The notes: a model not told the origin generated them from the letters alone. A stretch of DNA of 64,000 nt from Alphaproteobacteria bacterium (GCA_965231875.1 CBDDOM010000002.1:4690487-4754486), one strand, 5' to 3'; numbered from the stretch's first letter, positions 40 to 58,593 are shown. Translations and numbers: made by a program.

Positions 40-5757
<5,718 letters not shown>

Positions 5758-5763
5758 CGTCGC

Positions 5764-6591
5764 CTAGAACACCCAGTCGAAGGCCCGCTTCAGGAAACCG
5801 CGCTCGTCGGGCTTGGGCAGAGAACCGCCTCCGACCAGGGCGTAACTGTCGGCGTACCATTCACTGCCGGGATAATTGTGCCCCAGGACGGCCGCCGCCT
5901 TTGTCGCCTCGTGCTCGAGACCCAGTGCGAGGTAAGCCTCCGTCAGCCGGTGCAGCGCCTCGGGAATATGGGTCGTGGTCTCATAGGTCTCGACCACGCG
6001 ATGGAAGCGTCGGACAGCGGCGAGATAGTGACCGCGCGTCAGATAGTATCGGCCGACTTCCATCTCCTTGCCGGCAAGGTGGTCCCGGGTGAGGTCGACC
6101 TTGAGCCGCGCATCGCGGGCGTATTTGGTGTCCGGGAAGCGGCGAACCACGTCCTGCAGCGCGGTCAGAGCCTTTTCCGTGTTGAGTTGGTCCCGCACGA
6201 CGTCCGAAATCTGCTCATAAAAGCAAAGACCGCGCAGGTAGTAGGCGTATGCGATGTCGGAGTTGCCCGGATGGAGCTGGATGAAGCGGTCGAGCGCGAG
6301 GACCGCTTCGTCGTAATCGGTCGCCTGATAGTGCGAGAAGGCGGACATCAGCGACGCCTTGACGGCCCACACCGAGTACGGGTGCTGCCGCTCGACGTCG
6401 TCGAAACGCTCGGCGGCCTGGCCATATTGCTTGTTACGGAGCGCGTCGACGGCTTCGTTATAGAGCTCCTGGACCGGCCGTTCGACGTAGCGTTCCGCGT
6501 CCTTGTCGTCGTCGCTCGCGCAGGCCGAAATGGCCAAGGCCGCGAGCAACACCGCGGCAATCCGAGCTACACGATCCGGCAAGGGCGACAT
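5764..6591 (-). CDS. bamD: outer membrane protein assembly factor BamD (YfiO) lipoprotein
   Basis: 275 aa. Signal peptide plus lipobox (LAISAC), TPR-like repeats, and the conserved position downstream of lpxC. Confidence 0.85.
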   Translation of the reverse strand: MSPLPDRVARIAAVLLAALAISACASDDDKDAERYVERPVQELYNEAVDALRNKQYGQAAERFDDVERQHPYSVWAVKASLMSAFSHYQATDYDEAVLALDRFIQLHPGNSDIAYAYYLRGLCFYEQISDVVRDQLNTEKALTALQDVVRRFPDTKYARDARLKVDLTRDHLAGKEMEVGRYYLTRGHYLAAVRRFHRVVETYETTTHIPEALHRLTEAYLALGLEHEATKAAAVLGHNYPGSEWYADSYALVGGGSLPKPDERGFLKRAFDWVF

Positions 6592-6711
6592 TGGCGGCCG
6601 CGGACCCTCATTCTGGGCTGCGCGTTGCGCGCAACGGGCGCGCAGTCTAGAGCATTTTTGCGTGGTGTCGACCCGGCCCGCGGAGGCGCGAACGGCCGCC
6701 GGGAAAGGACT

Positions 6712-7671
6712 TCAGCCCGCCGCCGCGGCTACCGCGGGACAGGCCGTTCCGTTCGGTTCCGGCGGAATGTCCCACCACGTCCAGCTGTCCCGGTCGGCGA
6801 ACATCGCGCGCAGAAGGTCGTGGTTGGCGGAATGCCCGGACCTGACGGCCACGATACGGGCCAGGATCGGCGCGCCGGCAAGGTAGAGGTCGCCGACGCA
6901 GTCCAAAATCTTGTGGCGGACGAACTCGTCGTCGAACCGGAGGCCATTGCGGTTCACGACGCGATCGCGGTCGATGCCAATGGCATTGTCGACGGACGCG
7001 CCGAGCGCGAAGCCGGCCTCCCGCAGCCGGTCGACTTCGTCGACGAACCCGAAGGTTCGTGCCGGCGCGATGTCGTCGACAAAAGCGCCGTTCACCAGCG
7101 CAATAGACATTTCCTGGCGGGCGATGACGGACGAATCGAATTCGATCCGGAAATCGATGGAAAAGGCATCGGCGGGCATCATCGAGATGCAGGTCTCGCC
7201 ACGATCAACGGTAACCGCCTTGCGCAGCCGGATCGCGCGCCGGGGCGCGTCTTGTTCCTCGATGCCGGCCCGTTCGATGAGTTCCACGAACGGAGCCGCG
7301 CTGCCGTCCATCGCGGGGATCTCGGGTCCGTTCAATTTCACGATCGAGTTGTCGATACCCATGCCGGCGAGCGCGGCCATCAAGTGCTCGACCGTCGCAA
7401 CCGTAACGCCGTGGCGATTCCCCACCACGGTCGACAACCGGTCGTTCACCACATGTGCGAGATCGACGGGCACCTCGCCCGTTCCCAACGGTACGTCGGT
7501 ACGGCGGACCCGGATACCATGACCGGGAGGCGCCGGGAGCAGGGACATGGCGATATCGACGCCGCTATGGAGGCCGATCCCCCGGCAATGGACCGCACGC
7601 TCGACCGTCGCCTGGCTTGCCCGCACACACCCCTCCTCTTGACGCAGTTCCTTCGCTGCCGATCCGGGCAT
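6712..7671 (-). CDS. lpxC: UDP-3-O-acyl-N-acetylglucosamine deacetylase LpxC
   Basis: Aligns by eye to E. coli LpxC (QATVERAVHCRGIGLHSG; TVEHLMAALAGMGIDN; RTFGF; GLRFDDEFVRHKILD..GDL). The true start may be a few codons inside the track ORF. Confidence 0.9.
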   Translation of the reverse strand: MPGSAAKELRQEEGCVRASQATVERAVHCRGIGLHSGVDIAMSLLPAPPGHGIRVRRTDVPLGTGEVPVDLAHVVNDRLSTVVGNRHGVTVATVEHLMAALAGMGIDNSIVKLNGPEIPAMDGSAAPFVELIERAGIEEQDAPRRAIRLRKAVTVDRGETCISMMPADAFSIDFRIEFDSSVIARQEMSIALVNGAFVDDIAPARTFGFVDEVDRLREAGFALGASVDNAIGIDRDRVVNRNGLRFDDEFVRHKILDCVGDLYLAGAPILARIVAVRSGHSANHDLLRAMFADRDSWTWWDIPPEPNGTACPAVAAAAG

Positions 7672-7869
7672 CTCGGAACTCTACTCCACCCCGAGGCGGG
7701 CGCCATTCTAGGTTGTATTTTGCGGCGCCCACCGATCCGGTCGGACGAGGATGGTTTACCTTCTCCAGGCCCCCTCGGGCAAATCAACAATTGTTGCAGA
7801 TTGTTACCGTCCCGAGGGTAGAACTCCGCGAGCGATTTTCAAATCAAGGTCGAAGTCGGTTCAATCCCT

Positions 7870-9483
7870 TCAATTCGCCTGGCGCCGCAGAAAGGCGGGG
7901 ATGTCGAGCAGATCCTCATCGTTCACCGCGCCGGGCTCCACCGCCTCCGAGTCGACCCCCTCGAACTCCGGTTGCCGTGGCGGGGGAGACCCCGCCGCGA
8001 CGGCACCGCCCTGAGAGGCCGGTTTCGGCGCCACCGTCGGTTCACGGGGCGGAGCTTCCGCGGGCGCGGGTTGCGCATTCTCGGGATGACGCTGGTTCCG
8101 GGATTGGCCGACACCCGCCATTCTTTTCAGCAGGCTGGGGCGGCGGCGCAATTGCGGCGACCGCTGGGGCTGCTCAACCGCGCTGTCCGTATCGGCCCGC
8201 ATGCCGGAATCCGCCACGGGAGACTCGTCGACCGGCTCTTCTTCGAATTCCGGCTCTTCGCCCCCTTCGAAGAAGCTTTCCTGCGCCGCCGCGCTCTCCT
8301 CTTCCAGCACGGGCTCGTCCGTCCGTTCGATCGTCAATGCGTCCCCGCCGGGGGACGCATCGACGGCAGCCGGCGAAGGCAGGTCCTCGTACGGATGCGC
8401 GGGCAGCGCCGCTTCCGTGTGGATATCCGGTGCAAGCCCGGACATCGGCGCGGGCGGGAGCTCAGTCTCCGCGCCGGGCACGACGCTGAGAACGGGGCGC
8501 GGCTGCATGCCCACATCGGTATCGATCCCGGTGGCTACCACGGAAACCCTCATCTTGCCCTCAAGGACCGGATCGAGAGTGGAACCGAAGATTATGTGCG
8601 CCTCGGCATCCACCTCGTCACCGATGCGGTTGGCGACCAGATCGACCTCGAACAGGGTCATGTCGGGACCGCCGGTAATGTTGATCAGCACACCGCGCGC
8701 GCCCTTCATCGACACCTCATCGAGCAAGGGGTTGGAAATCGCCGCTTCGGCGGCGGCCATGGCTCGATCCTCGCCCTCCGCTTCGCCGGTCCCCATCATC
8801 GCCTTGCCCATCTCGCCCATCACTGTGCGGATATCGGCGAAATCGAGGTTGATGAGCCCGGGAACGACCATGAGGTCCGTGATTCCCCGCACGCCGCAGT
8901 GGAGCACCTCGTCGGCCTGGGAGAATGCGTCGGCGAACGTCGTCTTTTCGTTCGCCACGCGGAACAGGTTCTGGTTCGGGATCACGATAAGCGTATCGAC
9001 ATGCTTCTGCAGTTCCTCGATGCCCGCGTCGGCGACCCGGGCGCGCTTGCTTCCCTCGAACTGGAACGGCTTGGTGACCACACCGATCGCCAGGACCCCC
9101 TGCTCGCGCGCGAGGCGCGCAATGACCGGCGCGGCCCCCGTCCCGGTGCCTCCGCCCATACCGGCGGTGACGAACACCATGTTGGAGCCCGCGAGATGCT
9201 CGGCAATCTCGTCGATCGTTTCCTCGGCCGCGGCCCGCCCGATATCGGGCCTCGATCCGGCGCCGAGCCCATGCGTGATGTTGTGGCCAAGCTGGAGCTT
9301 GCGGTCGGCGAGGGACTGCACGAGCGACTGGGCGTCCGTGTTGGCGACGAGGAACTCGACGCCTCCCAGCTTCGCATCGATCATGTTGTTGACCGCGTTG
9401 CCGCCGGCGCCGCCAACGCCGACGACCATGATCTTCGGCTTGAGAGTGGCATCCGTCTCGGGTACCGAAAGATTGATAGTCAT
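7870..9483 (-). CDS. ftsZ: cell division GTPase FtsZ
   Basis: 537 aa. Tubulin signature GGGTGTG, an N-terminal GTPase core, and a long Pro/Glu/Ala-rich linker before the C-terminal peptide, as is typical of alphaproteobacteria. Confidence 0.97.
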
Positions 9484-37950: not shown

Positions 37951-38069
37951 GATCGTTTCCCCCTTCGGTTATCGGAACGGGCTTCGGCCCTTGTTCTTGT
38001 TCTCCCGATTGTCGGCGTTGCGCACAACCGTTGTCAAAATATATCGCGCGCCCCGATGGGCACGGCGGC

Positions 38070-38807
38070 TCAGCGCAGGCCGCGCTGCTTCCTGATCGTG
38101 TCCCAGGCCGCGTTGATCGCCGCCATCCGCTCTGTCGCGATCTGGACGAAATCCTCCGGCATGCCCTGCGCGGTCAGGCGGTCGGGATGGTTCTCCCGGG
38201 TGAGCTTCAGCCACGCCGCGCGCACCGTCTCGTCGTCGGCATCGCGGTCGACGCCCAGCACGGCATAGGGATCGGACTTGCTGTCGCCCTCGTGGTTCGC
38301 CCGGATTCGCCGGTAAGTGGTCTCGTCGAAGCCGAAGATTCCGGCGACCCGCTCGAGATAGTCGAGCTCGGCCGGATGGAGCACGCCGTCCGCGTTGGCG
38401 ATATAGAACAGCGCGTCGAGCAGCTCCTCGAGCACTGCCGGGTTGGCCGCGAACATCGCAGCGACCTGGCGGGCATAGGGCTCGAAGCCGCGCGCGTCCT
38501 TGCGCGCCTGGTCGAACACGCGACCGACGTTCTTCATCTCCTCCGGGGGCACGTGGAAGATACGGCGGAAGGCCGCGATCTCGTCCCGCGTCACCTTGCC
38601 GTCGGCCTTGGCCATCTTGGCGCAGAGCGCGATCACCGCGATGGTGAAGGCGATCTCGCGGGTGGCGGCCCGTCCGTCCCCGGCACCCTGGGGGGACCGC
38701 ATCCGGTCGACGGCATGGCCCGCCACCGCGCCGAGCAGCGCGCCGATCGGCCCGCCGAGCGCGAACCCGGCGGCGCCGCCGATGATCTTTCCCCAGATGC
38801 CGGCCAT
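38070..38807 (-). CDS. djlA: DjlA-like co-chaperone (TerB-like domain plus C-terminal J domain)
   Basis: 245 aa. Gly-rich N-terminal transmembrane segment, a TerB-like middle region, and a C-terminal J domain with HPD (DPYAVLGV...LTRENHPDR). Confidence 0.6.
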   Translation of the reverse strand: MAGIWGKIIGGAAGFALGGPIGALLGAVAGHAVDRMRSPQGAGDGRAATREIAFTIAVIALCAKMAKADGKVTRDEIAAFRRIFHVPPEEMKNVGRVFDQARKDARGFEPYARQVAAMFAANPAVLEELLDALFYIANADGVLHPAELDYLERVAGIFGFDETTYRRIRANHEGDSKSDPYAVLGVDRDADDETVRAAWLKLTRENHPDRLTAQGMPEDFVQIATERMAAINAAWDTIRKQRGLR

Positions 38808-38925
38808 TGGGTGCTCCTCCGCGCGGGCAATCTAGCACCCGGCAGGCCGCGGCGGAATCGCATCGACCGGGATGGGATTGCGGGAATACCAATATTTGGT
38901 ATCGTCGGCGGAAAGGGGCTGTTCG

Positions 38926-39162
38926 ATGCCACGAAACACTTCGGTTTCTCTCGGCGACCACTTCGCCGGGTTCATCGACGAACGGATCGCGTCGGGACGG
39001 TACAACTCGGCCAGCGACGTGGTGCGGGCCGGGTTGCGGTTACTCGAAGAGCACGAGGCCAGTGTGGAGGCCCTGCGTGAGGCGCTGATCGAGGGCGAGC
39101 GATCGGGCCCCGCCGAACCGTTCGATTTCGACACGTTCATTGCGGGCAAGAAGTCCGGCTGA
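38926..39162 (+). CDS. parD: ParD-type (COG3609/CC2985-family) type II antitoxin, no cognate toxin downstream
   Basis: 78 aa, [42 protein letters not shown]..., a ribbon-helix-helix antitoxin pattern. SD GAAAGGGG lies upstream. It resembles the ParD of the intact pair at 57121..57387. A hairpin repeat follows it instead of a parE. Confidence 0.7.
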
Positions 39163-39191
39163 GGGAAATGTCGGGCGTATCCCCCTCCCCC

Positions 39192-39287
39192 GTCATGCTC
39201 GGCGAAGGCCGAGCATCCACGAGTTTTTCGCTGTGTAAGGGCTACGAAAAAACAAAACGCGGATGGTCGGCCTCCGCCGACCATGAC
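39192..39287. repeat. intergenic hairpin repeat, family 1 (copy A, imperfect arms)
   Basis: GTCATGCTCGGCGAAGGCCGAGCATCCACGAG-TTTTT...AAAAAACAAAA-CGCGGATGGTCGGCCTCCGCCGACCATGAC. Same family as the perfect 31-bp inverted repeat at 43486..43578. Confidence 0.6.
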
Positions 39288-39375
39288 GGGCTACAAGAGA
39301 GGTGCCCAATTCGGATTGACCTGCGGGATCGGGGCGCTTCCGCGCCGCGCGGGCCACGGCTATTCTGATCCGCGT

Positions 39376-40191
39376 ATGGAACGGAGCCAGGCCGCTTTGA
39401 GCAAGGCCATCGAACCCATCGCCGATCCGGCGGAGCTGCGCCGGCTGTGCCGCGAGGGGGCCTATGCCGGCCCGACCTCGGGCCACGCGGCGGGCTACGT
39501 CCAGGCGAATATGGTGATCCTGCCGGCCGCCGAGGCGGAGGATTTCGCCGCCTATTGCGAGCGCAACCCCCGCCCCTGCCCGGTGCTGGAGATACTGGAC
39601 CGGGGCGATCCGGTGCCGCGCCGGACGGCCCCCGGCGCCGACATCCGCACCGACCTGCCGCGCTACCGCGTATTCCGCAACGGCGAATGCGTCGCCGAGC
39701 CGACGGACATAACCGGCCTCTGGCGCGACGACCTGGTGACCTTCCTGCTCGGCTGCTCGTTCATCGCGGAAGAAGCGCTGCAAGGCGCGGGGCTCGAAAT
39801 TCGCCACATTGCCGAGACCGGCTATGTCTCGATGTACCGGACCGGCCGGCGGACCGTTCCGGTGGGTGCCTTCGCGGGGCCGATGGTGGTCTCGATGCGC
39901 CCGTTCACGCCGGACGACGCCGACCGCGCGGAAGAGATCACCGCGCGCTACCCGATGGCGCATGGCGGGCCGGTCCATCGCGGCGATCCGGCGGCGATCG
40001 GCATCCGCGACATCGCCGAGCCGGAATACGGCCGGCCGGTAACCGTCGACGACGACCAGATCCCGGTATTCTGGGCCTGCGGGGTGACGCCGCAGGAGGC
40101 GATCCTCAACGCCCGGCCCTCGCTCGCGATCACCCACATGCCGGGCTGCATGTTCGTCGGCGACCGCACCGCCGAATCGACCCGGGTCTGA
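39376..40191 (+). CDS. DUF1445 / D-glutamate cyclase-like (UPF0317 putative hydro-lyase) protein
   Basis: About 271 aa from the internal ATG at 39376; the track start at 39283 lies inside the repeat. The family assignment is made from memory of its conserved GYVQAN..ILP and NPRPCP-type blocks. Medium confidence. Confidence 0.5.
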   Translation: MERSQAALSKAIEPIADPAELRRLCREGAYAGPTSGHAAGYVQANMVILPAAEAEDFAAYCERNPRPCPVLEILDRGDPVPRRTAPGADIRTDLPRYRVFRNGECVAEPTDITGLWRDDLVTFLLGCSFIAEEALQGAGLEIRHIAETGYVSMYRTGRRTVPVGAFAGPMVVSMRPFTPDDADRAEEITARYPMAHGGPVHRGDPAAIGIRDIAEPEYGRPVTVDDDQIPVFWACGVTPQEAILNARPSLAITHMPGCMFVGDRTAESTRV

Positions 40192-40204
40192 CTGGAGAAC
40201 GCCC

Positions 40205-41608
40205 ATGACCGCGACCCTGACCGCCGACGGCCTCGCCGACCGGCTTCGCGGATTTCTCGGAGAACGGGTCTCGACCTCGGCGGTCGTGCGCGAGGGGCAC
40301 GGGCGCGACGAATCGCACCACCCGCCCTTCCCGCCCGACATCGTCGTGTTCCCCGAATCGGTCGACGAGACGGTCGCCGTCGTCGGGCTCTGCCGCGAGC
40401 ACGACACGCCGATGATCCCCTTCGGCGTCGGAACCTCGCTCGAAGGCCATGTCGCCGCGCTTGAGGGCGGGGTGTCGATCGACATGTCGCGGATGAACCG
40501 GGTGCTCGAAGTCAACGCCGCCGACCTCGACGTCCGGGTCGAGCCCGGCGTGACCCGCAAGCAGCTGAACGCGCATCTTCGCGACACCGGGCTGTTCTTC
40601 CCGATCGACCCGGGCGCGGACGCGACCCTCGGCGGCATGACCGCGACCCGGGCCTCGGGAACCAACGCGGTGCGCTACGGCACGATGCGCGACAACGTGC
40701 TGGGGCTCACCGTAGTGCTCGCCGACGGCCGGGTCATCCGGACCGGCACCCGGGCACGGAAATCCTCGGCGGGGTACGACCTCACGCGCCTCTTCGTCGG
40801 ATCGGAGGGGACGCTCGGCGTGATCGTCGAGGTGACGCTCCGGCTCTCCGGCATTCCGGAGGCGATCTCGGCCGCGGTCTGCGCCTTCCCGAGCGTCGAC
40901 GACGCCGTCGAGACTTCCATCGCGATCATCCAGTCGGGCGTGCCCGTCGCGCGGATTGAGCTCGCCGACGAGGTGCAGATCACCGCGATCAACCGCTGGT
41001 CGAGGACCGAGCTCCCCGAGCGCCCGGTGCTGTTCTTCGAGTTTCACGGAAGCGAGGCCTCGGTCGCCGAGCAGGCGGAGACCGCGCAGGCGATCGCCGC
41101 CGACAACGGCGGCACCGGGTTCGAATGGTCGACCCGGCAGGAGGACCGCAACGTCCTATGGCAGGCGCGTCATGACGCGCATTACGCCAATATGGGGCTC
41201 CGTCCCGGCCGCCGCGCCTGGCCCACCGATGTCTGCGTGCCGATCTCCAGGCTCGCGGAATGCATCGCCGAAACGCAGCGGGACATCGCCGCCACCGACC
41301 TGCTCGCCCCCATCGTGGGCCATGTCGGCGACGGGAATTTCCACATCGATTTCGTGATCGACCCCGACGACGAGGCCGAGCTCGCCGCCGCCACCGGGGT
41401 GAACGAACGCCTGATCGGGCGCGCGCTCGCGATGGGCGGCACCTGCACCGGCGAGCACGGCGTCGGTTACGGCAAGAAGAAATACCTCGCCGCCGAGCAC
41501 GGCGAGGGGGTCTCGGTGATGCGTGCGATCAAGCAGGCGCTCGATCCCGCCAACCTGATGAATCCGGGAAAGATCGTCGATCCGCCTCCGGCGGCCGCGG
41601 CGGAGTAA
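40205..41608 (+). CDS. FAD-linked oxidase, GlcD/D-lactate dehydrogenase (cytochrome) family
   Basis: 467 aa. FAD_binding_4 (PCMH) N-terminal domain (GVGTSLEGH, GSEGTLGV) and a C-terminal FAD-oxidase_C domain (TGEHGVG...K). Confidence 0.85.
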   Translation: MTATLTADGLADRLRGFLGERVSTSAVVREGHGRDESHHPPFPPDIVVFPESVDETVAVVGLCREHDTPMIPFGVGTSLEGHVAALEGGVSIDMSRMNRVLEVNAADLDVRVEPGVTRKQLNAHLRDTGLFFPIDPGADATLGGMTATRASGTNAVRYGTMRDNVLGLTVVLADGRVIRTGTRARKSSAGYDLTRLFVGSEGTLGVIVEVTLRLSGIPEAISAAVCAFPSVDDAVETSIAIIQSGVPVARIELADEVQITAINRWSRTELPERPVLFFEFHGSEASVAEQAETAQAIAADNGGTGFEWSTRQEDRNVLWQARHDAHYANMGLRPGRRAWPTDVCVPISRLAECIAETQRDIAATDLLAPIVGHVGDGNFHIDFVIDPDDEAELAAATGVNERLIGRALAMGGTCTGEHGVGYGKKKYLAAEHGEGVSVMRAIKQALDPANLMNPGKIVDPPPAAAAE

Positions 41609-43414: not shown

Positions 43415-43485
43415 GAGCGGGAGGTCGACAGACGTTCCGGGAGGCGCCGGGGCATACCCCTTTCGCGCCAGACCGTTCCTCTGTC

Positions 43486-43578
43486 GTCATGGTCGGCGCA
43501 GGCCGACCATCCACGAGTTTTTGCGGCGCCGGAAACAAAAAAACAAATCGTGGATGGTCGGCCTGCGCCGACCATGAC
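43486..43578. repeat. hairpin repeat, family 1 (copy B, perfect 31-bp inverted repeat)
   Basis: GTCATGGTCGGCGCAGGCCGACCATCCACGA-[31-nt T/A-rich loop]-TCGTGGATGGTCGGCCTGCGCCGACCATGAC, with perfect arms. It lies in the P450/Rieske intergenic region. Confidence 0.7.
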
Positions 43579-43633
43579 GGAGGAGGCGGGACAAGTCCCG
43601 CGCCCGCCGGCACCGGGCGCCGGGCCGGTCACC

Positions 43634-54350: not shown

Positions 54351-54413
54351 GCCCACGCGCCGGGCGACGGGTCGATGCAGGACCCGGGCGGCGAACCGCG
54401 AAGGAGTAGCGTG

Positions 54414-56174
<1,761 letters not shown>

Positions 56175-56184
56175 TGGACGGGGT

Positions 56185-56694
56185 TTGGCGGTGAGCGACA
56201 CCGAACGGCATACGATCTCGGTCCTGGTCGACAACGAGGCGGGCGTTCTCGCCCGCGTGATCGGCCTTTTTTCGGGGCGCGGCTACAATATCGAGAGCCT
56301 GACCGTGGCCGAGGTGGACGCCGCGAACGCGCTGTCGCGGATCACCGTGGTGACCACCGGAACGCCGATGATCATCGAGCAGATCAAGGCCCAGCTGGAC
56401 CGGCTGGTGCCGGTCCACAAGGTGGTGGACCTGACCAACGAGGGACCCTATGTCGAGCGCGAGCTGGCGCTGGTGAAGGTCAAGGCGAGCGGCAACCGGC
56501 GGGTGGAATCGCTCCGCATCGCCGACATTTTCAGGGCGCGCGCGATCGACAGCACGGGCGGGTCGTTCGTCTTCGAGATTTCCGGATCGACCGAGAAGCT
56601 CGACGCTTTCATCGGCCTGATGGAGCCGCTCGGCCTGGTCGACGTATCGCGCACCGGGGTCGCCGCGATCGCGCGCGGAATGTCGGCGATTTAG
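56185..56694 (+). CDS. ilvN: acetolactate synthase small (regulatory) subunit
   Basis: 169 aa. N-terminal ACT domain (HTISVLVDNEAGVLARVIGLFSGRGYNIESL). Non-ATG start (TTG or GTG). Confidence 0.9.
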   Translation: MAVSDTERHTISVLVDNEAGVLARVIGLFSGRGYNIESLTVAEVDAANALSRITVVTTGTPMIIEQIKAQLDRLVPVHKVVDLTNEGPYVERELALVKVKASGNRRVESLRIADIFRARAIDSTGGSFVFEISGSTEKLDAFIGLMEPLGLVDVSRTGVAAIARGMSAI

Positions 56695-56718
56695 GGCAAT
56701 ATGCCTTACGGTGCGCCG

Positions 56719-56810
56719 CCCTTCGATACGCGGCTGCGCCGCTACTCAGGGTGAGGGAGCCGGACGTTAGTCCCTCATCCCGAGTAGGCGCGCCAGCGCC
56801 GTATCGAGGG
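56719..56810. repeat. palindromic repeat, family 3 (copy 2)
   Basis: CCCTTCGATACGCGGCTGCGCCGCTACTCAGGGTGAGGGAG...CTCCCTCATCCCGAGTAGGCGCGCCAGCGCCGTATCGAGGG. It ends 5 nt before the parE stop, at the convergent ilvN/parE junction. Confidence 0.6.
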
Positions 56811-56815
56811 ACGCG

Positions 56816-57124
56816 CTATAGATCCTCCCGGAGCCGGCCGATCTGGTGCATGCGCTCGTGCAGCACGGTGACGATGCCGATGTCTCCGTTGCCCAGCCGT
56901 TTCCAGTAGACGAAATGCCTCTCGTACCGGAAGACGTAGCCGTCAACCTCGAACTGGGCCGGAATCGGACGCGAGACTACCTCTCCCGTTGCGATCCCCT
57001 CGAAGGCCTCGAACAGGCCGGTGACGTACGCATCCGCCCGCGCTTCTCCCCAACGCTCCAGCGAGTACCGGTAGATCTCGTCAATACGGAGAGCGGCCGC
57101 TTCCTGTACGCGGACCGACGTCAT
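56816..57124 (-). CDS. parE: ParE/RelE-family type II toxin
   Basis: 103 aa. ParE-like hydrophobic/aromatic pattern (YRYSLERWGEARADAY...YVFRYERHFVYW). ATGA overlap with the upstream antitoxin. Confidence 0.75.
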   Translation of the reverse strand: MTSVRVQEAAALRIDEIYRYSLERWGEARADAYVTGLFEAFEGIATGEVVSRPIPAQFEVDGYVFRYERHFVYWKRLGNGDIGIVTVLHERMHQIGRLREDL

Positions 57125-57387
57125 GGGTCGGCGCGCGTCGCGTTCCTCGCAATGACGTCCGATGCCGATAGCGGACGATACGAGGCGTCCGGCGCAGCGA
57201 AGGCGCGTTCCAGCTCGGCCTTCAGGCGCTCGAACGCCTCGGTCTCCGAACGCTCCTTGTCGCGACGGATCAGATCGCGAATGTACTCGCTGACGTTTTC
57301 GTAGGAGCCGTTCTCGCCGACATTGGCCGACACGAAATCGCTGAGCGCGCCGCTGAGGCGAACCGTCATCGTCGTGGTGCGGCGCAT
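57121..57387 (-). CDS. parD: ParD-type (COG3609) type II antitoxin
   Basis: 88 aa. RHH-like N-terminus (MTVRLSGALSDFVSANVGENGSYENVSEYIRDLIRRDKE), paralogous to the antitoxin at 38926. Confidence 0.7.
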   Translation of the reverse strand: MRRTTTMTVRLSGALSDFVSANVGENGSYENVSEYIRDLIRRDKERSETEAFERLKAELERAFAAPDASYRPLSASDVIARNATRADP

Positions 57388-57543
57388 CGGCCGGTCTCCC
57401 GCAAACAATGCGTACAATATAAACAATATCGAATACAGCAGGCAAGCAGCGGAGCGGCGGCGCTCCGGTTGACCGAAGGCTTGCGGCGCTGGTACAGGTG
57501 GCGGAGAAAACGAGCGCCACGGGGGGATGCGAAGCGTCCCTGA

Positions 57544-58593
<1,050 letters not shown>

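Follow-up and report, generated by a model that had tools for sequence, protein, structure and literature searches.

Introduction

In type II toxin-antitoxin systems, loss of the antitoxin before the toxin is lethal, so that decay of a pair is expected to start with the toxin. Antitoxins of the ribbon-helix-helix type act as repressors that bind DNA. Orphan antitoxins have been recognised as a class, for which anti-addiction has been proposed as a role, and most of those found in Klebsiella derive from degraded canonical pairs (PMC7354431). The chromosomal ccd module of Erwinia chrysanthemi acts against the CcdB toxin of the F plasmid, and is an anti-addiction module (PMC7354431).

The locus described here lies within a 64,000-nucleotide stretch of an alphaproteobacterial genome (GCA_965231875.1, CBDDOM010000002.1:4690487-4754486), hereafter the window, and it compares with the described systems as follows. 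By sequence, its ParD belongs with the Caulobacter ParD1-ParE1 system (3KXE; PF03693/TIGR02606 family), well above the HMM cut-offs, and the orthologous loci show the usual bicistronic parD-parE organisation, with a gap of 5-8 nt and a PF05016 toxin. Unlike these pairs, the window lacks the toxin gene, and it does not encode a functional toxin-antitoxin pair. Similarly to the Klebsiella orphans, it carries an intact antitoxin gene without a toxin, which clearly stems from a degraded canonical pair. Homologous modules occur on plasmids, with a ParD identity of no more than 74%, and cross-neutralisation by the window ParD is putative; the Erwinia ccd is a complete chromosomal pair, whereas the window parD is an orphan. 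The window locus thus adds to a known kind, that of orphan antitoxins surviving from degraded parDE pairs.

The place of the toxin gene is taken by a palindromic repeat. Bacterial MITEs, such as the Correia, ERIC and RUP elements, are small, palindromic and multi-copy. REPINs are REP doublets that form hairpins and are mobilised by RAYT transposases (PMC3116915, PMC3337134), and REPIN populations are described as mostly vertically inherited. The window element resembles REPINs in its architecture (two inverted REP-like units of ~30 nt, a short variable spacer and a hairpin of ~100 bp), as well as in being intergenic and multi-copy (two copies in the 64 kb, and at least 120 metagenome stretches), with stems kept by compensatory changes. 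It differs from the REPIN/RAYT system in that a GIY-YIG domain (PF01541), not a Y1 transposase, is encoded between the arms in several metagenome loci, and from REPINs in that its family spans many environmental lineages. Like MITEs, it is small, non-coding, palindromic and multi-copy, has terminal inverted repeats and lies next to or inside genes; on the other hand, no target-site duplication was seen at its two window copies, and it has not been linked to a classical IS transposase.

Results and Discussion

An intact parD gene without an adjacent parE

The parD gene (38926..39162, plus strand) is intact, encodes a ribbon-helix-helix antitoxin of 78 aa and has no adjacent toxin partner. The protein reaches 121.1 bits with PF03693 (Pfam cut-off 21) and 101.5 bits with TIGR02606 (NCBIfam cut-off 46.2), in keeping with the first-pass annotation, which had read the gene as ParD-like. 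Its nearest solved structure is that of the Caulobacter crescentus ParD1 (PDB 3KXE chain C, E=4.4e-27, residues 3-74), and 8C24 and 7B22 were matched as well. A longer reading frame starting at 38872 was rejected as the real parD, because almost every one of the closest homologues listed has a length of 78 aa. There is no space for a toxin gene upstream of parD, because the djlA-like gene (TerB + DnaJ; 38070..38807, minus strand; Pfam TerB 112.7 bits, DnaJ 35 bits), which served as the left syntenic anchor, is only 118 bp away. The orphan status is read here within the 64-kb window, and a cognate parE could exist elsewhere in the genome.

The ParD subfamily comprises more than 120 clusters (clustered at 90% identity), some of which carry the source names Defluviicoccus, Nitrospinae or Rhodospirillales. 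Its members are 76-93 aa long (most of them 78 aa) and show 83-94% amino-acid identity; judged from these alignments, the subfamily is unusually conserved. Pairwise dN/dS values of the window parD against the other loci range from 0.02 to 0.15, for instance 0.05 against both L022 and L013, and 0.02 against L002 (6001-6237; dN 0.04, dS 1.88, which is saturated). These low values may stem from the time that ParD spent as a paired antitoxin, rather than from selection on the orphan. The C-terminal tail, which binds ParE, is almost identical in the alignment to the tails of the ParD proteins still paired with a ParE. Homologues with 91-94% identity stand in non-syntenic chromosomal or metagenomic contexts (such as L001, where the gene adjoins a transposase, and L209-L211), and L002 is non-syntenic as well. 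Plasmids contribute 855 records, none of them above 74% identity, and phages contribute one, at 53.5%.

A conserved motif at 38878..38905 (plus strand) is the putative promoter and operator of parD. It combines a -35-like hexamer, TTGCGG (38878-38883), a -10-like hexamer, TATCGT (38900-38905), and, between them, the near-palindrome ATACCAA-TAT-TTGGTAT (38886-38902); it is followed by a putative ribosome-binding site, GGAAAGGGG, at 38910-38918. The match to the sigma-70 consensus is weak (7/12), and a scan for this consensus called no promoter upstream of parD. The motif TTGC..(A/T)TACCA-N4-5-TGG(T/C)A is kept in all eight loci that were aligned, the non-syntenic L002 included, as are a -10-like part of the form TA(T/C)NNT and a ribosome-binding site of the GGAAAGG type. 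Motif and ribosome-binding site thus move together with the parD cassette, even to the non-syntenic L002. By this layout, ParD would bind the TACCA-N5-TGGTA palindrome through its ribbon-helix-helix N-terminus, thereby repressing its own promoter.

The parE remnant and the borders of the scar

No ParE reading frame or protein-level remnant occurs in 39140-39400, in agreement with the first-pass statement that no parE follows parD. The reading frames of 39163..39375 are just one of 66 aa (39168..39368) and one of 32 aa, with no toxin in any frame, and the 66-aa frame matches no Pfam or NCBIfam family. The parD-cyclase interval yielded only noise in TBLASTN searches (no score above 16.5 bits, and no consistency of strand or position), whether the query was one of three cognate-type ParE proteins or the ParE of the window itself (56816..57124). 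The latter protein, which the first-pass annotation had put forward as the probe, thus revealed no toxin remnant; it is a probe of the wrong subfamily, sharing just 32% identity with the cognate-type ParE of L002.

At the nucleotide level, a 5' stub of parE was found at 39168..39192 (plus strand), which consists of the start codon, 5 nt past the parD stop, and of ~4-8 codons, of which ATGTCGGGCGTAT is certain. The stub reads ATGTCGGGCGTATCCCCCTCCCCCG and its L022 counterpart ATGCCGGGCTATGCCCTCTCGCCCG; their local alignment scores 25, a value equalled in one of 500 shuffles. In a multiple alignment, the stub aligns with the start of parE in L022, L017, L003, L013, L016 and L002. It leads directly into the hairpin, and its C-rich end (39181-39192) could be part of the repeat element. 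Since C-rich left flanks occur at many copies of the repeat family, the certain remnant of parE amounts to just ~13 nt.

On the other side of the hairpin, the right flank of the scar (39291..39325) contains the 10-mer TTCGGATTGA (39310-39319), which matches a site lying 12 nt past the parE stop in L212 and L213. This match scores 20, which ~40 of 1000 shuffles equal, and is therefore marginal and suggestive only. No remnant of the parE 3' end was found in 39291-39326 at the DNA or the protein level. The blastn homology to the relatives ends at 39163-39192 and restarts at 39327-39335 in L003, L012, L013, L014, L016, L017, L022 and L212, i.e. at the upstream region of the D-glutamate cyclase gene (39326..40191 with this region, plus strand; PF07286, 197.9 bits), the right syntenic anchor, whose start is the ATG at 39376 or the TTG at 39397. 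On the evidence of these alignments, the hairpin in effect replaces the parE coding region.

The 66-aa reading frame is a chimera (39168..39368, plus strand), which opens at the surviving ATG of parE, continues across the hairpin and stops shortly before the ATG of the cyclase gene. With the parE ATG standing 5 nt past the parD stop, the chimeric peptide may arise by translational coupling, and it is probably a junk product.

A second, distantly related pair in the window

The window also carries an intact parDE-like pair of a different subfamily (56816..57387, minus strand), in which the genes for ParE (56816-57124; PF05016, 31.7 bits) and for the antitoxin (57121-57387) overlap by 4 nt. This antitoxin has no Pfam ParD match, and its TIGR02606 score of 39 bits (E=6e-10) lies below the cut-off of 46.2. 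The first-pass annotation had taken it for a paralogue of the orphan ParD. Remote homology, as seen in the TIGR02606 match, and the intactness of the pair stand; close paralogy was rejected, the two proteins matching each other in BLASTP with E=0.087. Cross-talk between the orphan ParD and the second pair is conceivable, but not expected. The latter is flanked by reading frames that we take, from their translations read by eye, to encode the large and small subunits of acetolactate synthase (54375-56174 and 56185-56694) and ketol-acid reductoisomerase (57574-58593). If these identities are correct, the second pair is inserted inside an ilv gene cluster (region 54375-58593).

States of the orthologous slot in Defluviicoccus

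A genome scan with the DjlA protein identified Defluviicoccus MAGs as the closest relatives (best JAPPIT010000115, with 97% DjlA identity), djlA being 76-97% identical in Defluviicoccus genomes. We mapped DjlA, ParD, ParE and the cyclase in the loci of these relatives, compared the loci by blastn, and built a neighbour-joining tree from djlA and the cyclase gene.

In L019-L021, the three relatives furthest from the window, djlA and the cyclase gene lie 130-185 bp apart with an empty slot between them. This slot harbours an intact parD-parE pair in L017 and L022, and likewise in the metagenome contigs L212 and L213; in these loci, the 96-aa ParE (PF05016, 72-75 bits) begins 5-8 nt past parD. 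The comparison with orthologous loci that the first-pass annotation had proposed thus uncovers intact parDE pairs, and, as parE is kept there at the same djlA-cyclase site, its reading of a toxin loss with a repeat now in the place of the toxin is borne out. In L003-L005, L007 and L008, parD is followed by a parE frame that is open over 95 codons and in which GGG replaces the start codon; in L006, the same locus has a disrupted parE frame. Only parD is left in the window and in L013, L014 and L016. L016 retains the first ~24 nt of parE, and its parD is two codons short; L014 retains the last ~24 nt of parE; L013 has a 5' stub of parE followed by 1.1 kb of unrelated DNA. Finally, parD is absent from L010, L012 and L015, and none of the loci compared has parE alone.

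The start-less parE (e.g. L003 4243-4533) still reaches 74.7 bits with PF05016 and is skipped by gene callers. It was met in one Defluviicoccus species, on several contigs from different samples, and it is either a very recent pseudogene or a gene translated from a non-canonical start.

From these states of the slot, we propose that the window locus is very probably what remains of a former parDE pair, in which parE was deleted and a hairpin now stands at the scar. First, the nucleotide identities of the window parD to its orthologues (0.90 for L022, 0.89 for L013 and 0.81-0.84 for the others) parallel those of the flanking genes, from which it follows that parD descended vertically, as part of the locus, from a clade ancestor bearing parDE. 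Second, the window retains the start of parE at the very site where the intact loci have the gene. Third, toxin-first decay recurs in the series: read from the alignments, at least five independent toxin inactivations have occurred, the window included (four deletions and one loss of the start codon), with parD kept each time. A single deletion common to the window, L016 and L014 is contradicted by their differing end points and was rejected.

Several observations concern the slot itself. In L009 (L009rc 4789-8735, i.e. JAPPIT010000115), the match to the window breaks off at 38860, shortly before the promoter of parD, and unrelated genes follow, with neither parD nor the cyclase gene within 4 kb; the rearrangement of this closest sampled relative thus falls exactly on the slot. 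A second two-gene cassette also occurs between djlA and the cyclase gene, which encodes a ~200-aa protein without a Pfam family and then one of 96 aa whose ParE_like and HigB-like matches are weak and stay below the threshold. The cassette was found (in reverse-complement coordinates) at L010rc 4893-5793, L012rc 5044-5944, L013rc 5238-6135, L014rc 1181-2228, L017rc 5953-6844 and L022rc 5772-6636, and depending on the lineage it stands upstream of parD, downstream of parD or alone. This cassette may be another toxin-antitoxin-like module. Together with the IS insertions present in L008 and L017, it identifies the slot as an integration hot spot.

Is the orphan parD kept by selection?

The persistence of parD raises the question of whether it is selectively kept to neutralise the ParE of an incoming plasmid or mobile parDE, thereby averting post-segregational killing, the role that has been proposed for orphan antitoxins (PMC7354431). 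The conservation of the family (83-94% identity in more than 120 clusters, and a dS of 1.88 for a dN of 0.04 against L002) makes cross-neutralisation of foreign members plausible. Suitable targets may circulate, since the family is found in non-syntenic contexts, next to a transposase in L001 and also in L209-L211, and has homologues with up to 74% identity on the 855 plasmid records. The ParE-binding C-terminus is unchanged, and parD has outlived parE repeatedly: four lineages, including the window, keep it after independent parE deletions (intact in three of them and two codons short in L016), and a fifth keeps it after the loss of the parE start codon.

However, the other orphans each have a close relative that retains parE or a parE frame (dS 0.13 for L013 and L022, 0.33 for L014 and L017, and 0.07 for L016 and L003). 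With distances of just 0.07-0.33, these orphan states are young and can be explained without selection. Moreover, parD is missing from three lineages, plasmid homologues reach just 74% identity with no Defluviicoccus plasmid in these data, and anti-addiction through orphans 'remains to be demonstrated as a common usage' (PMC7354431). We therefore regard selected anti-addiction as unlikely here; a neutral relic with incidental cross-protection is the more likely of the two.

A REP-like hairpin at the place of parE

The palindromic element spans 39189..39290 (102 bp), and its core, GTCATG...CATGAC (39192..39287), is 96 bp long and starts 30 nt past the parD stop, as the first-pass annotation had it. 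With 40 nt each, the arms (39189-39228 and 39251-39290) show 83% complementarity, and each of them holds a perfect 9-bp hairpin of its own, so that the element consists of two inverted REP-like units of ~30 nt with a 22-nt spacer between them. Its RNA would fold with -73.5 kcal/mol (z=-6.1), and none of 200 shuffles folded equally well. A second copy occurs at 43478..43586 (arms of 45 nt, 89% complementary), and the hairpin therefore belongs to a repeat family. A scan of 38000-40500 against Rfam (E<=1) returned no RNA family.

The scan for intrinsic terminators found none in the parD-hairpin-cyclase interval, and the hairpin is not a canonical one, because no T-run follows it. This bears on another possible fate of ParD, namely that it was re-purposed as a stand-alone transcription factor, for instance of the D-glutamate cyclase/FAD-oxidase genes, with the hairpin stabilising the RNA or acting as an insulator. 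The parD gene, the hairpin and the cyclase gene are indeed co-stranded, with 213 nt from parD to the ATG of the cyclase gene and no intrinsic terminator in between, and ribbon-helix-helix antitoxins repress genes by binding DNA. Yet, the operator-like palindrome is limited to parD's own promoter and moves with the cassette (e.g. in L002), the outgroups L019-L021 express the cyclase without parD, and the toxin-binding tail bears no sign of decay. Such a re-purposing is consequently highly improbable.

Turning to the origin of the hairpin, neither copy had a match in blastn against 88 related loci, the orthologous ones included. The element is thus absent from every orthologous locus among these, and its arrival was lineage-specific. 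It lies exactly between the 5' stub of parE and what, in the relatives, comes after the parE stop. Among the relatives with an intact parDE, L212 (~675-720) and L022 (L022rc ~5410-5480) carry a different REP-like hairpin, CGTCATGCCCGG...CCGGGCACGACGG, ~30 nt past the parE stop. Palindromic repeats of related design hence recur around the slot, and such sequences have been active there.

These data could mean that the hairpin was the cause of the toxin loss, i.e. that a mobile element inserted into parE, and that the rest of the gene was then lost by deletion or by element-promoted recombination. The exact position of the element, its absence from all orthologous loci and the related hairpins just past the parE stop of L212 and L022 speak for this scenario. 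On the other hand, L016, L014 and L013 lost parE by clean deletions without any such element, so that deleting parE needs no repeat. In addition, no parE is left to the right of the element, where a simple insertion would have spared some, and no direct-repeat target-site duplication is visible at either window copy (in other members of the family, the flanks are often inverted-complementary rather than direct). We consider a causal role of the hairpin possible but rather doubtful.

The repeat family and a small GIY-YIG gene

The repeat arm, GGATGGTCGGCCTNCGCCGACCATGAC, occurs in at least 120 metagenome stretches. Full elements mostly measure 80-110 bp and consist of two inverted REP-like units and a variable spacer, each unit having the layout GTCATG-[9-bp stem with a GAAG-type loop]-CCACG. 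Several pairs of the stems show compensatory changes (GC to CG and AT to GC, in either direction), and in 31 distinct arms pairing is kept at 94-100%.

Among the matches listed, a gene for a GIY-YIG nuclease of ~95 aa (PF01541, 52 bits) was found between or beside the arms in 6 of 120 loci. It is enclosed by two perfect inverted arms of 30 nt at L108 344-828, L183 343-827, L194 5-489 and L200 4491-4868, and adjoins arms at L122 6924-7373 and L123 3590-4189. The four enclosing loci correspond to three independent elements, L108 and L183 being near-identical. Mutual identity of the enclosed proteins is only 67-78%, yet their arms are perfect. This association suggests a tiny GIY-YIG element, of which the hairpins would be non-autonomous relatives. 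The window itself contains no GIY-YIG match, and the literature searched, subscription journals aside, nowhere connects GIY-YIG with palindromic repeats or MITEs of bacteria.

A more far-reaching reading holds that the window hairpin is the non-autonomous form of this arm-enclosed ~95-aa GIY-YIG element, a counterpart of REPIN/RAYT widespread in environmental metagenomes, whose arrival disrupted parE; and that, separately, the Defluviicoccus series, with its at least five parE inactivations and parD kept, could reflect anti-addiction selection. We view it as speculative and quite unlikely.

Proposed history of the locus

Returning to the decay of a chromosomal parDE module in a Defluviicoccus genome, which we favour, the history is very probably as follows. 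The clade ancestor gained a parD-parE cassette, which settled between djlA and the gene for D-glutamate cyclase. The window lineage then lost parE from about codon 5-9 through the stop codon, and the 102-bp palindromic element now stands exactly at the deletion scar. Two orders of events are conceivable: the hairpin went into parE and the rest was then deleted, or the hairpin came later onto the scar. The parD reading frame is undamaged, and the palindrome of its putative promoter and operator is conserved. ParD is presumably still made, and its C-terminal ParE-binding tail would now lack an adjacently encoded partner. The orphan parD is most likely a transitional relic, sister lineages having apparently gone on to lose parD too. 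As long as it is kept, ParD could neutralise in trans an incoming ParE of the same conserved family, thereby providing anti-addiction.

Conclusions

Taken alone, the window locus is a textbook outcome, in which a chromosomal toxin-antitoxin pair decays toxin-first and leaves an orphan antitoxin. What the relatives add is that one orthologous slot, within one genus, displays all the stages: empty, intact parDE, start-less parE, four parE deletions with parD retained, and loss of both genes. The arm-enclosed GIY-YIG gene, found in unrelated metagenome contigs, could point to an undescribed mobilisation system. The slot series forms a compact natural experiment on whether orphan antitoxins are under selection, as in anti-addiction, or are short-lived relics, and it also bears on the cross-neutralisation of foreign ParE toxins by a highly conserved ParD family.
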